Source: Acidobacteriota bacterium
GTDB lineage: Bacteria; Acidobacteriota; UBA6911; RPQK01; JAJDTT01
DNA length: 64,000 nucleotides
Direction of reading: 5' to 3'
NCBI GenBank assembly: GCA_965263035.1
Contig: OZ253580.1
Location: forward strand, 2,464,001-2,528,000
Shown here: piece after piece, positions 6,497 to 49,305 of the stretch
Layout of the letters: each line of letters starts with the position of its first letter
Position numbering within the stretch: position 1 is the first letter of the stretch
Position numbers and translations under genes: made by a program
The notes under the pieces: generated by a model
Database searches by the model: none
Told to the model about the DNA's origin: nothing
What the model saw: only the letters and a program-made list of their open reading frames with translations

Positions 6497-6574
6497 TGGC
6501 AGGCCAGGAGGGAATCGAACCCCCAACATCCGGTTTTGGAGACCGGCGCTCTACCAACTTTGAGCTACTGGCCT
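6497..6574 (-). tRNA. tRNA-Trp(CCA)
   Basis: AGGCCAG/CTGGCCT acceptor stem, anticodon CCA, GTTCGA T-loop, encoded CCA end. Confidence 0.96.
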
Positions 6575-6586
6575 ATTGAATATCAT

Positions 6587-6736
6587 TTATCGCGCCTCGC
6601 GGTGTGCCACGTGGCGACGACACCAACTGCAATATTTTCTCAGCTCGAGCCGCACGCGCTGAGTCTTCCTGTTCTTGGTCGTACTATAGTTCTTCCTGTG
6701 GCAAGCGGTGCATCGGAGGGTGATGATATCGCGCAT
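6587..6736 (-). CDS. rpmG: 50S ribosomal protein L33 (Zn-binding C+ form)
   Basis: Manual translation MRDIITLRCTACHRKNYSTTKNRKTQRVRLELRKYCSWCRRHVAHREAR; 49 aa, below the ORF-track cutoff. Confidence 0.96.
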   Translation of the reverse strand: MRDIITLRCTACHRKNYSTTKNRKTQRVRLELRKYCSWCRRHVAHREAR

Positions 6737-6740
6737 CGGC

Positions 6741-7928
<1,188 letters not shown>

Positions 7929-7967
7929 GATGGAACTCCTGAATCAGCCTTGCCTGGTCAGTTGGAA

Positions 7968-8039
<72 letters not shown>

Positions 8040-8079
8040 ACATACCCGTCTCCCCGGTTTCTGTCCACGTGGCCACTGT

Positions 8080-8155
8080 TGGAGCGGGAGACGGGACTCG
8101 AACCCGCGACCGATAGCTTGGAAGGCTATTACTCTACCAACTGAGTTACTCCCGC
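8080..8155 (-). tRNA. tRNA-Gly(TCC)
   Basis: GCGGGAG acceptor stem, anticodon loop CTTCCAA, encoded CCA. Confidence 0.96.
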
Positions 8156-8218
8156 CCTCGACCGTATGCGAAAAATCGAGTCCGTTCTCTCTAGATCCCG
8201 GAAGGGCGGCTTCTGGTC

Positions 8219-8303
8219 TGGAGGGGGCAGGATTCGAACCTGCGTAGCCCCGAAGGGCGACGGGTTTACAGCCCGTTGCCTTTATCCACTCGACCACCCC
8301 TCC
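8219..8303 (-). tRNA. tRNA-Tyr(GTA)
   Basis: GGAGGGG/CCCCTCC acceptor stem, loop CTGTAAA, long variable arm. Confidence 0.95.
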
Positions 8304-8512
8304 TCATTGCATTCGGGGAATTCCTGATCCCCATCCGCCCCGTGGTGTCGCTCCTGCCAGTGCACCCCACCTTCCTGCAAAGCAGTCCCATTGCCAGGGA
8401 GGATACGGGAAGTGCCAAATTATACGCACTTCGGGGACCATATTCAAACTGAAAAATGGACGAACTGAGGCCGCCATTCCCGGCACCCGAGGGTAACCTT
8501 GCTGCGAGGGCG

Positions 8513-8584
8513 AGCTGGCGAAGGGAATCGAACCCCCAACCTACTGATTACAAATCAGTTGCTCTACCCTTGAGCTACGCCAGC
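8513..8584 (-). tRNA. tRNA-Thr(TGT)
   Basis: GCTGGCG/CGCCAGC acceptor stem, loop TTTGTAA. Confidence 0.95.
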
Positions 8585-18000: not shown

Positions 18001-18158
18001 GAGCGGCGGTTTTCTTGCCGCCGATTGGGGGGGGTAGGGGGGACGATTAGTCCCCCCTCCTCTTCGTCTTCTTCCTTCTCAATCCGGAGTGGGCGACAAG
18101 AAAGTCGCCCCTCCCAGCGGGCGGCAAGAAAGCCGCCCGTCCTAGCGGGCGACAAGAA
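18000..18158. repeat. Composite REP doublet copy 2 plus extra REPs (last one split by the intron)
   Basis: Near-identical to 21057-21175. Confidence 0.85.
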
Positions 18159-18801
18159 GTCGCGGTAGGGACACCGGTTGCCCAGCGCCCCCCGCGCAGA
18201 TCCGTGCGTGCCCGTTAAGGCACACGGCTCCTACCTCAGGTAGTGACGGCAGGTCGCGACGCCCGCCGTATCCGACCCCCGCCTGTGTCACGGTCATCCG
18301 GCTCTGGGTCCGGTCCGTACTTTGGTGAGCCGAATTCCCCTTGGCTCCATCCCTTCGCTCCACGGACTCCGCAGAAAGTTCCCCCTCTTTGTTCGCCCGC
18401 TTCATCACTACTATGGATGTATCCGATTGCTTGCTCTTTCCCCTCATGGGTTACGGCTTTCTCCTTTCCCACGAGGCCCCGGCTCTCGCCGGGGAGAGAC
18501 CAAGCCCTCCCAGGTCCCGACACCAGATGTACGTACGTGCATGGGTTCTTTGACACCGCGGAGCCCGGCCGTCCCTCACCTTGGCGGTCCAGCCGGTGTT
18601 GCCTTCGACCGCGACTACAGCCTCGGCACTTCCGATCAAGGAGCTTTCGATGCTCAATAGCCTGCCCATACGCACCGCTACCGACGCTTCGCCGACGCCC
18701 TCACGGACGCCCACGCACGGCTCGCGGAGAAACGTGGATGGTTAGTCCTTTCGTTTCAGCGGACTTTCACCGCCTATCTTGTGCCAGTTAGCCTGGCGCA
18801 C
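18159..18801 (-). mobile_element. ORF-less group II intron (IIB-like), 643 nt
   Basis: 5' GTGCG at 18801; domain V GAGCCGTGTGCCTTAACGGGCACGCACGGATC; 3' end CCCTACCGCGAC; no RT ORF. Confidence 0.9.
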
Positions 18802-18812
18802 AGTTGCCCCTC

Positions 18813-19487
18813 CTATTCCTTCTCGAAAAGGAGAAACTCCCTTTCTCTCAATCCGGCTCTCCTTGGATTCTCGCGGATATATTCCAGGCACTTCAAAAAG
18901 TGCAGAGGGTGCCGGATCAACCGATCCCAATAGTCTTTCTGCCAGATCTTGGCGTATTTTCCGGTCTTCTGGTTGATCACATGAGCCGTAAATCCCTTCC
19001 AGGATCTGACGATGTCTCTGAGATGATGAGAGCCAAGAGGGCGAAACAGCACATGGACATGGTTGGGCATCACGACGAAGGCGGCCAGTTCGTAACGCCG
19101 GCCGTCGAAATGCCGCAGTGAGTCAGCCACGACTCGGGCCAAGGCCGGATCCTTCAGGAGGCAGAACCCGTTCCCTTGATCCAGCCAGTCCTCGATTCGT
19201 CGAGAGAATTGATTGACGTAGCGTTTCGCCGTCCGCGCATCCCAGGGTCTTGGATGGTGTTTCAACCAGAATCTTCGTTCTTCCCGCCACTGATCCAGTT
19301 TGGCGTGTGGAAGCGAATCTCCCAGCCGCCAAGTCACGAAGACGAAGTGTTCACGCTTGTGCCAATGGGGCAGGCGGTTGTACCAAACGTCAATGGTTCC
19401 AGACTGATCAAAAGAGGAGCCGAAGCTTTCCAGCCACCAATTCTTCGAATCGCATGCCACAAATTTCCTAACGATCCCCTCACCCAA
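18813..19487 (-). CDS. REP-associated tyrosine transposase (RAYT, HUH Y1 family)
   Basis: LPHW, FVTWRLGDSLP, VVMPNHVH (HUH), WQKDYWDRLIR, YIRENP; REPs on both sides; start uncertain. Confidence 0.88.
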   Translation of the reverse strand: MGEGIVRKFVACDSKNWWLESFGSSFDQSGTIDVWYNRLPHWHKREHFVFVTWRLGDSLPHAKLDQWREERRFWLKHHPRPWDARTAKRYVNQFSRRIEDWLDQGNGFCLLKDPALARVVADSLRHFDGRRYELAAFVVMPNHVHVLFRPLGSHHLRDIVRSWKGFTAHVINQKTGKYAKIWQKDYWDRLIRHPLHFLKCLEYIRENPRRAGLREREFLLFEKE

Positions 19488-19927
19488 TCGACGATAGATT
19501 GGGAGTATCCATGTTGCAAGTGGTGGGTGCTAATCGGTGTTTCCATCCCGTGTCGTTAGTACGTGATCTGTCCGGTCCAAAGGGCACAGGGTTAGGAGGA
19601 GCGTTCTTCCGCCGGAGGTGAGGCGGAGATCGAGCTGGATCCAGCGGGCGCCGTGCAGGGGGCGATGAGTGGACCGATAACTGGATCGAGGGACCTGAGA
19701 TCGTCGACGTCAGTCCTCCGGGAGGTCCGGATACGCCCTGGGGAGCGTCGGGTCAAGCCTCCGGCTCCTCCGCTTCGCTGCGGCCCTTCGGGTGACCCGG
19801 CGCTCCCCAGGGCGTGAAGAGCTTTCATGGCCGTAAGCAAGCTTCCGGCCAGACTTGACCGGAAGTTCGACAGACGGCCATCAGGGGGTCCACACGCTCC
19901 CTTTCCTCACGGGGTCTCTCCGTGGCC

Positions 19928-24949: not shown

Positions 24950-25581
24950 ATCGGGTCGAGTACAGGGGATTGCGCCCCCGCACCCTCCCACACCACCGGA
25001 CGTACCGTTTTCAGTATCCGGCGGTTGGAGTCACCCGAGGCTCTTTCGAGCCTCGTACAGGGCCTTTCTTTCCGGTTTCCGCCGCCGCTGAGACTTGATC
25101 TCCGCCCTTCCGGCTTGCCGGCCTCCACCCGTGGGCCTTCCATGCCGGGTCCGAGGAGGGTTCCCCTCGCCCCGCTGTCGGAGGTGGTTGCGATCCCGCT
25201 GACGAGTCCACCATAGGGCCAGTCCGACTCCTTCGGTCCTTCGCTCCACCGGCATTACCCGGCTTCTTCGCTACTACGACCTCTGCTGACTTCTCAAGGG
25301 CTCTCACCCTTGAGATCTCCCCGAGTAAGGTGCTGCATCTTTCCCCCCGGGCCGCCCGGCTCTACCTGATGCGTCTGGATGGGGTTCGGGTTTCGCTGTT
25401 GCTCGCCAGCTCACCGCCCGCACCCGGCCTCACTGCCGGTTCGTGTTCCTGCGATCGTGGGTTTGCCTTCCGCTTCCTTCAGCTTCGCCTCGCGGCTTCG
25501 CCTTGCGGTTCGGCTAGGGTTGATCCCATCACCTCCCTTGGGATCTTTCATCCCTTAGATACAGCCCATGTCCGGGCGTAC
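24950..25581 (-). mobile_element. ORF-less group IIC intron, 632 nt
   Basis: 5' GTACGCCCGGACATGGG; short domain V AACCGCCGGATACTGAAAACGGTACGTCCGGTGGT; 3' end CTCGACCCGAT; no RT ORF. Confidence 0.88.
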
Positions 25582-35754: not shown

Positions 35755-35867
35755 CAGGAGGGACAACTTTCTTGTCGCCTGGTCCGTGCTGCAGAAGAAG
35801 AAGAGGAGGGGGGACTAATCGTCCCCCCTAACCCCCCCTAATCGGCGGCAAGAAAGCCGCCGCTCCC
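35755..35867. repeat. Composite REP doublet copy 5 (inverted)
   Basis: Reverse complement of the 16409/18000 unit. Confidence 0.8.
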
Positions 35868-48984: not shown

Positions 48985-49305
48985 ACTGTCTCTCTCTTGT
49001 CCACATGCCACCGCCACTAACCCGGCGGAACCGGCCGGTGCTCACGTTGCTCGCGTCCCGACCGCTGGCAGCCATCGTGCGTTTCTCAGGCGGGTCGGCT
49101 TCCGCATTACCCGTTTCGAGGCCTGATCAGCATTCACATGTTGCAGCATGCGGACTCGCTGAGTCGCCCAAGGCGACCCTTTGACATCGGAGTGCTTCAG
49201 TCCATATCGTTGCCTCCATGAACCGCTCCGACTGCTACCGGCTGGAGCGACAGTTGCCGGGTGGGATTCGCACCCACTGAGAAACAGCGCCTTTGCACGG
49301 CGCAC
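48985..49305 (-). mobile_element. 5' fragment (domain I) of a third group II intron
   Basis: GTGCGCCGTGCAAAGGCGC..GGGTGCGAATCCC start; TGAGA loop (49084-49088) complementary to the 5' exon TCTCA; no domain V or VI. Confidence 0.7.

Follow-up and report, generated by a model that had tools for sequence, protein, structure and literature searches.

The 64,000-nt stretch of DNA analyzed here (the window) carries, behind a RAYT-like transposase gene, an element that we regard, with a probability of about 0.85, as a non-autonomous group II intron that has lost the RT of domain IV (DIV) and belongs to a lineage that retrohomes into REPs by EBS/IBS pairing. In the mechanism we propose, EBS2 would pair with the GGAG tag that immediately precedes the REP on its 5′ side, EBS1 with the 3′ part of the REP 5′ arm, and EBS3 with the first base of the REP loop, so that the intron would be inserted where the 5′ arm meets the loop. 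Insertion would use single-stranded DNA at the replication fork, presumably as in other endonuclease-less introns, and the window copy would have entered the first REP behind the RAYT-like gene, 11 nt past the stop codon and in the sense direction.

The intron (copy c1 of what we call family A) runs on the minus strand from 18801 to 18159 and is complete, a 643-nt ribozyme with all six domains and one of seven full-length copies, 89 to 100% identical, in a genome available as a 6.2-Mb single contig that contains no N. The limits given by the first-pass annotation, 18159 and 18801, were exact; the strand, which it had left out, is minus. The element starts with GUGCG at 18801 and finishes with ...CUACCGCGAC at 18159 (...CGCGAC), and such GUGYG/AY ends are common to copies with differing flanks, six of the seven beginning with GUGCG and one with GUGUG, and all seven ending in CGCGAC. 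The domain I core, at 18544 to 18767 (minus strand), matched Rfam model RF02005 (group-II-D1D4-6) over positions 1 to 225 of 225 with 166.5 bits (E = 2.9e-48), well above the gathering score of 49. RF00029, the model for domains V and VI (DV and DVI), matched the last 74 nt (18159 to 18232, minus strand) up to the exact 3′ end with 36.9 bits (E = 2.4e-5 in a 1.2-kb search), slightly below its gathering score of 40. Alignment to RF00029 together with folding placed DV and its AGC triad at 18199 to 18230 (minus strand), and the same alignment placed the 3′ strand of DVI, CCCUACCGC, at 18162 to 18170 (minus strand) with a bulged branch-point A at 18166. Folding of the last 77 nt gave a DV-like helix and a DVI helix whose bulge is 2 nt. 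When relatives were compared, compensatory changes were present in the DV, DVI and Id helices, two such base-pair changes in DV separating the ORF-less from the RT-bearing lineages. The fact that DV and DVI of these lineages differ by compensated pairs argues that the ribozyme has been kept functional. Matches to RF02005 were tallied in 28 of 61 related genomes (G016 included).

We found no RT ORF in the intron: the four overlapping ORFs of 87 to 182 aa had no Pfam match at an E value of ≤0.01. The idea of a complete ribozyme outline without an RT ORF was thus borne out, both by the Rfam models for domain I and DV/DVI and by the Pfam scan. We set the internal ORFs aside as coding candidates, given the lack of Pfam matches and the composition of the 101-aa open frame (18142 to 18447, minus strand), which fuses, in frame, what is left of the two ends (N- and C-terminal) of the lost RT. 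In the window intron, CGA stands in place of the parental TGA, and the frame therefore crosses the 3′ splice site; it is open in all seven copies of the genome (101 to 116 aa) and is probably a relic constrained by DV and DVI.

The likely form of the parent is preserved in congeners, which have a 1917-nt intron with a 519-aa RT ORF in DIV whose end is no more than 4 nt from the 3′ splice site. Window intron and parent are collinear save for the DIV ORF, with 88% identity over positions 1 to 548 of the window intron and 79% over positions 552 to 643. A tblastn search with the congener RT found an N-terminal coding remnant in DIV at 18331 to 18447 (minus strand; aa 5 to 39, 77% identity, with an ATG at intron position 355) and a C-terminal remnant that overlaps DV and DVI at 18163 to 18252 (minus strand; aa 490 to 519, 63% identity), such that ~39 to 50 N-terminal and about 30 C-terminal codons (490 to 519) are left. 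At the level of sequence, these comparisons show the window element to be a derivative of the 1917-nt RT-bearing intron by internal deletion in DIV. The parental RT scored 356.9 bits on TIGR04416 and had only the Pfam domain RVT_1, with no endonuclease domain. This IEP is 53 to 59% identical to the products of ltrA genes on proteobacterial plasmids, and we found no label in the Zimmerly ORF classes (A to F, CL, and ML) for its lineage in the main texts of papers on intron classification.

ORF-less and RT-bearing copies of family A are unevenly spread over the genus. The window genome (G000) has seven ORF-less copies and no RT-bearing copy, G005 has nine full ORF-less copies and one RT-bearing copy, G007 has three and 10 or more, and the draft assembly G006 has one and none; G002 and G004 have no ORF-less copies, with about 10 and three RT-bearing copies, respectively. 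The 20 ORF-less copies, from four genomes, all have the same deletion junction. A FastTree tree, rooted at its midpoint and with the RT-bearing rows trimmed to their ribozyme parts, groups them in a single clade, separate from 10 RT-bearing copies. Junction and tree show a single origin for the ORF-less clade. Five of the seven EBS1 variants described below occur within this clade, implying that retargeting continued after the RT was lost. Among more distant relatives, introns of the same family lie head to tail or right after another's 3′ end (L033 in G055 and L069 in G012), a tandem or twintron-like arrangement.

The gene upstream of the window intron lies on the same strand (18813 to 19487, minus), with its stop codon 11 nt from the intron, and encodes a 224-aa RAYT-like Y1 transposase (Pfam Y1_Tnp, E = 1.7e-8). 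It scored 73.9 bits on the NCBIfam model for REP-associated tyrosine transposases (cut-off 80) versus 28.9 bits for IS200, and the genome has two Y1_Tnp genes. The intron splits the first REP hairpin behind this gene, and the joined exons read GGAGGGGCAACT^TTCTTGTCGCC (the caret marks the insertion point), a REP with one G-to-A change in its 5′ arm. The proposal that removal of the intron restores a REP therefore held to within one base, the element near 35757 that had been cited for comparison reading AGGAGGGACAACTTTCTTGTCGCC. Two intact REPs found by pattern scan just downstream (18092 to 18137, minus strand), GGCGACTTTCTTGTCGCC at 18092 and GGCGGCTTTCTTGCCGCC at 18120, are the commonest palindromes of the genome, occurring 87 and 69 times, and the joined exons are one base away from them. 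The general hairpin pattern occurs 723 times in the genome, and free strict target motifs number about 172. On the strength of high-copy short palindromes and an adjacent RAYT-type Y1 transposase, the target can be assigned to a REP/RAYT system. In two congeners, the orthologous RAYT genes (93% and 81% identical) are directly followed, in the same place, by an uninterrupted REP; with these sites empty, the insertion must have taken place in the lineage of the window genome.

Other repeats and RNA genes lie nearby. A repeat of ~200 nt directly upstream of the RAYT gene (19500 to 19700) has at least 13 more copies that are 97 to 100% identical and is also present in congeners. Contigs of two sequencing runs join 18024/18025 to 19500/19501, so at other loci, or in other strains, this repeat lies right next to a REP and the RAYT-intron block is missing. 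At 6500 to 8584 (minus strand), Rfam called five clustered tRNA genes at the gathering threshold.

Exon recognition is of the IIB type, as had been proposed: a hairpin loop carries EBS1, the internal loop before it carries EBS2, and EBS3 is a nucleotide of its own on the 3′ side of the basal helix. EBS1, AGUCGC, is at intron positions 186 to 191 (18611 to 18616, minus strand), and EBS2, GCUCCU, is at positions 158 to 163 (18639 to 18644, minus strand), 5′ of the EBS1 hairpin. EBS3 is the A at position 251 (18551, minus strand), directly 3′ of GGUGUC. The first-pass annotation had positioned AGUCGC (18611 to 18616) and the CUCCU within EBS2 (18639 to 18643) exactly. Its claim that AGUCGC occupies a domain I loop, on which it had staked the REP-homing reading, agrees with the terminal hairpin loop of the Rfam consensus and with an RNAalifold consensus of 10 relatives, in which the stem below the loop carries compensatory G-C/C-G swaps, EBS2 falls in an unpaired stretch before it, and EBS3 sits just 3′ of the basal helix. 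Folded alone, as a single sequence, the Id3 region had a thermodynamic z score of −0.55, which did not help to place the loop, and the consensus fold was used in its stead. On the exon side, the REP tag and 5′ arm at 18802 to 18814 (minus strand) comprise IBS1 (GCAACU, 18802 to 18807), a spacer G (18808), and IBS2 (AGGAGG, 18809 to 18814), the last of which overlaps the RAYT stop codon. The 3′ exon (18148 to 18158, minus strand) has IBS3, a U, as its first base at 18158 and then the REP loop and 3′ arm, UUCUUGUCGCC; at the orthologous empty sites, the REP is intact.

A complement to any one 6-mer is expected about 0.15 times by chance in 643 nt, so a single match of this kind is unremarkable, and the weight of the EBS1 assignment lies in covariation. 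The comparison within the genus covered six genomes with 30 copies, of which 20 were ORF-less and 10 RT-bearing. Watson-Crick or G·U pairs join EBS1 and IBS1 at six of six positions in 28 copies and at five of six in the other two, including the window copy, whose single A·C mismatch had been noted before. Seven distinct EBS1 sequences were present, each matching its own 5′ exon (AGUCGC, AAUCGC, AGUCCC, AACCCC, GGUCGC, GGGUGC, and GGAUGC), and relatives at the level of the order added four further matched EBS1/IBS1 types. Mean pairing was 5.9 of six positions for cognate EBS1/IBS1 combinations versus 2.9 of six for 72 non-cognate ones. EBS2 likewise covaries with IBS2 across the copies of the genus (GCUCC/GGAG(C), CCUAC/GUAGG, and CAUGC/GCAUG), with four or five positions of its 5-nt core paired in 29 of the 30 copies, and this upholds the suggestion that CUCCU pairs with the exon tag. 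EBS3 pairs with the first base of the 3′ exon in all 30 copies (A-U in 24, G-C in five, and U-A in one). In addition to the A·C mismatch in IBS1/EBS1, the window copy has a G·G mismatch at the edge of IBS2/EBS2, and these mismatches may weaken its splicing.

The sister copies in the window genome are consistent with the same rules of recognition. Six of the seven lie at one REP register, GGAG[C/G]GGCG[A/G]CT^T[T/C]C (target form GGAGCGGCGACU^U, GGAGCGGCGACU^UUCUUGUCGCC), and a further 67-nt 5′ fragment in the genome has the same 5′ exon as these six. The seventh, c7 (89% identical; L007, 680748 to 681390 of G000), lies in a second palindrome family, at GUAGGGGUGCCC^CUUGUGGGUGCCC (in longer context GGTAGGGGTGCCC^CTTGTGGGTGCCC), with a target of the form GUAGGGGCACCC^C. 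Its EBS1, EBS2, and EBS3 are GGGUGC, CCUAC, and G, versus AGUCGC, GCUCC, and A elsewhere, and the combination of a different palindrome with matching changes in all three implies that c7 was retargeted. The second repeat, intact, reads GTAGGGGCACCC CTTGT GGGTGCCC (GGGCACCC-CTTGT-GGGTGCCC) and recurs in the genome, and the retargeted subfamily occupies it in two congeners too. At the site occupied by c7, the 5′ arm is GUGCCC, not GCACCC, and so pairs with EBS1 via two G·U pairs.

Copies with and without an RT share the REP register, as the REP-homing proposal had predicted: besides the six copies just described, 19 of the 23 RT-bearing copies in congeners with both ends placed are in palindromic repeats at this register. 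Insertion at unrelated sequences, which the first-pass annotation had named as the finding that would speak against REP homing, is not the pattern among the sister copies; four of the 23 RT-bearing copies (one outside palindromes, and three with identical flanks at a site matching their own EBS1 and EBS2) and one of the 20 ORF-less copies are not in palindromes. Some copies at different REPs are identical, c2 to c3 over 643 nt and c5 to c6 over 642 nt, with c4 differing by 1 nt. The flanks of c2 to c6 differ right at the junctions, which together with the identity of the copies favors recent reverse splicing over recombination.

Five of the seven copies follow a gene of the same strand at a distance of 11 to 57 nt, and all five gene products have Pfam matches (the RAYT, a BNR-repeat protein, a GFO/IDH/MocA oxidoreductase, an M1 peptidase, and an AcrB-type transporter), and this proximity makes read-through a likely source of intron RNA. 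The geometry of the window copy, on the same strand and 11 nt past the stop codon, likewise fits likely cotranscription with the RAYT gene by read-through, and splicing would then restore the REP in the RAYT mRNA. Contigs from four sequencing runs cover the intron (X15, X16, and X17, labeled metatranscriptomic, and X1), with a summed depth far above that of the flanks; this coverage is no proof of transcription, because the intron is multicopy and RNA libraries may contain DNA. No contig among the four runs joined the exons across 18158/18802, a search made on contigs only and for a multicopy intron. Two contigs (X1 record 7 and X17 record 31) have 15 or 16 unplaced letters on the 18802 side, which could represent an empty or a spliced site. 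GC skew puts the origin near 2.5 to 2.9 Mb and the terminus near 5.8 Mb; in all seven copies, the sense strand is then the leading-strand sequence, as it should be if the introns insert into the lagging-strand template. We rejected this strand bias as independent evidence, as 120 of 172 free targets (70%) are oriented in the same way (P = 0.11).

Family A shares the genome with two other group II intron families. Family B is represented in the window by a second ORF-less intron at 24950 to 25581 (minus strand), with matches to RF02001, RF01998, and RF00029 (38.9 bits), and in the genome by 19 ORF-less copies and two RT-bearing parents. Each of the 19 ORF-less copies directly follows a REP-type hairpin (...GTCGCCGCTC^GTGCG), whereas their 3′ exons are unrelated, in class C-like fashion, and 18 of the 21 copies are leading-sense, versus 40% of the free motif (P about 2e-5). 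Family C appears in the window as a ~320-nt 5′ fragment at 48986 to 49305 (minus strand; RF02003, 83.8 bits). Elsewhere in the genome it has four RT-bearing copies at a non-REP site (...CTAGCC..ATTTCTCA^), one of them with its RT gene split by about 2.2 kb. ORF-less introns in the genome, from two families, number at least 26, versus roughly six RT genes.

How family A chooses its targets, and which protein has moved it, can each be read in more than one way. Target choice could be structural, as in class C, with the REP recognized as a DNA stem-loop and the EBS/IBS matches secondary. In keeping with this, at least four different palindromes have been entered at the same 5′ arm/loop junction, and family B inserts directly after REP hairpins in all 19 of its ORF-less copies. 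Yet family A introns lie within the hairpin instead of behind it, the seven EBS1 variants track the target sequence, and EBS2 is present and covarying, whereas a 2015 review describes class C introns as having none (PMC4424553). The constant register is also accounted for by base pairing, for a G[G/U]AG tag and the arm layout are common to the REP families, such that small EBS changes retarget the intron and leave the register unchanged. We consider structural choice very unlikely for family A, and its covarying EBS2 and position inside the hairpin likewise led us to reject membership of class C (IIC).

The first-pass annotation had also proposed that the RT is supplied in trans. Its premise, the missing ORF, stands, and the need for a helper follows logically from it; the part that did not find a counterpart in the data is the helper itself, for a tblastn search of the 6.2-Mb contig with the congener RT found no cognate RT, the best matches, 36% and 33% identical, being the RTs of the two other intron families. 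A trans-acting helper has therefore been deduced, not found. Mobility would require an RT/maturase in trans, and we infer that this role was filled by the cognate 519-aa IEP, which congeners have kept. No cognate IEP in the same cell was found on the chromosome; extra replicons would lie outside the assembly and, since it is a single contig, would go unseen. The copies may therefore be relics that spread only while a cognate RT-bearing parent was present, the parent having been lost since then, perhaps very recently, or residing on an unassembled plasmid; the elements would by now be no more than passengers of REPs, either still splicing or in decay. We put this account as a whole a little short of even odds. 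It fits a chromosome without a cognate RT, the company of RT-bearing copies (one, and 10 or more) in the congeners that have both ORF-less copies and complete chromosomes, and the target mismatches and 10 private substitutions of the window copy. It fits less well with the two identical copy pairs at different REPs (643/643 and 642/642) and the third copy 1 nt off, which imply very recent movement, with the failure of tblastn to find any RT remnant in the genome outside the ORF-less copies, or with the compensated helices kept in DV and DVI. Recent movement without a cognate RT would instead be expected if a non-cognate IEP, of family B (two RT genes) or family C (three or four), mobilized family A in the window genome, where intact RT frames of 438 to 515 aa are available and where domain I of family C weakly matches the same Rfam model (22 to 25 bits). 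Maturases are usually specific for their own intron, however, and the family B and C RTs are only 33 to 36% identical to the cognate one, family A has no nucleotide similarity to the RT-bearing introns of the genome at an E value of ≤0.001, and family C homes into an unrelated non-REP site, all of which make this route improbable. Equally doubtful, in our estimation, is a bolder version, in which family A is a SINE-like, REP-specialized group II lineage, retargeted through EBS1, EBS2, and EBS3, that is still moving without its cognate RT, mobilized by the 33 to 36% identical IEPs or by the REP/RAYT system. Single-stranded REP hairpins or RAYT nicks could, in such a case, give an endonuclease-less intron both access and a primer.

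If homing by EBS/IBS pairing is correct, a whole intron lineage homes into REPs, a host-wide repeat of hundreds of copies, by ordinary base pairing, and one selfish element lives on another (REP/RAYT). A non-autonomous sublineage would have persisted across four species and, with no RT of its own, switched between target families on at least four occasions, leaving a natural retargeting series of seven EBS1 variants with known targets. Family A would also be a direct test case for the mobilization of intron RNA by a foreign IEP.

RmInt1 of Sinorhizobium meliloti is an intron of class IIB, and IIB-type recognition is a feature that it shares with family A. As described (PMC1802570), it also resembles the lineage in having an RT without an endonuclease domain and in homing into a repeated element, but it has its own RT and targets the insertion sequence ISRm2011-2, whereas family A is ORF-less and targets a REP. 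The target specificities of bacterial group II introns that are set out in the 2015 review are unique homing sites, terminator stem-loops, and attC sites (PMC4424553). In the open-access literature, we found no base-pairing-directed homing of group II introns into REPs beyond the association reported in a 2006 paper on Pseudomonas putida, where the copies concerned are two of nine (PMC1525189). That paper also treats REPs as specific insertion targets of other mobile elements, ISPpu9, ISPpu10, and IS1397, which are DNA transposons, unlike the family A intron. The IIC introns share with family A the absence of an endonuclease and the use of abundant intergenic hairpin motifs as safe sites, but they are characterized as lacking EBS2 and inserting downstream of the hairpin (PMC4424553), where family A has covarying EBS1 to EBS3 and inserts inside it; the IIC-like family B (24950 to 25581), in the same genome, behaves classically. 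The 2015 review regards ORF-less bacterial introns as a rarity, with a related IEP alongside them in nearly all cases (PMC4424553), and a 2022 survey has since described ORF-less expansions in some genomes. Those of Thermosynechococcus, in the account given in PMC2882425, share with family A an RT-bearing ancestry, many copies, and the presumed use of an IEP in trans, but related IEPs are present in the same genome, whereas the cognate IEP of family A is absent from the chromosome; family A further differs in targeting a REP palindrome and in having an ORF-less clade that spans four species. C.te.I1 of Clostridium tetani, as the 2015 review presents it, is likewise a bacterial group II intron that lacks an ORF and whose host genome has no related IEP gene (PMC4424553). 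It is single, gene-internal, and alternatively splicing, however, whereas family A is multicopy and intergenic, and the family A genome, unlike that of C.te.I1, has other, unrelated intron RTs.
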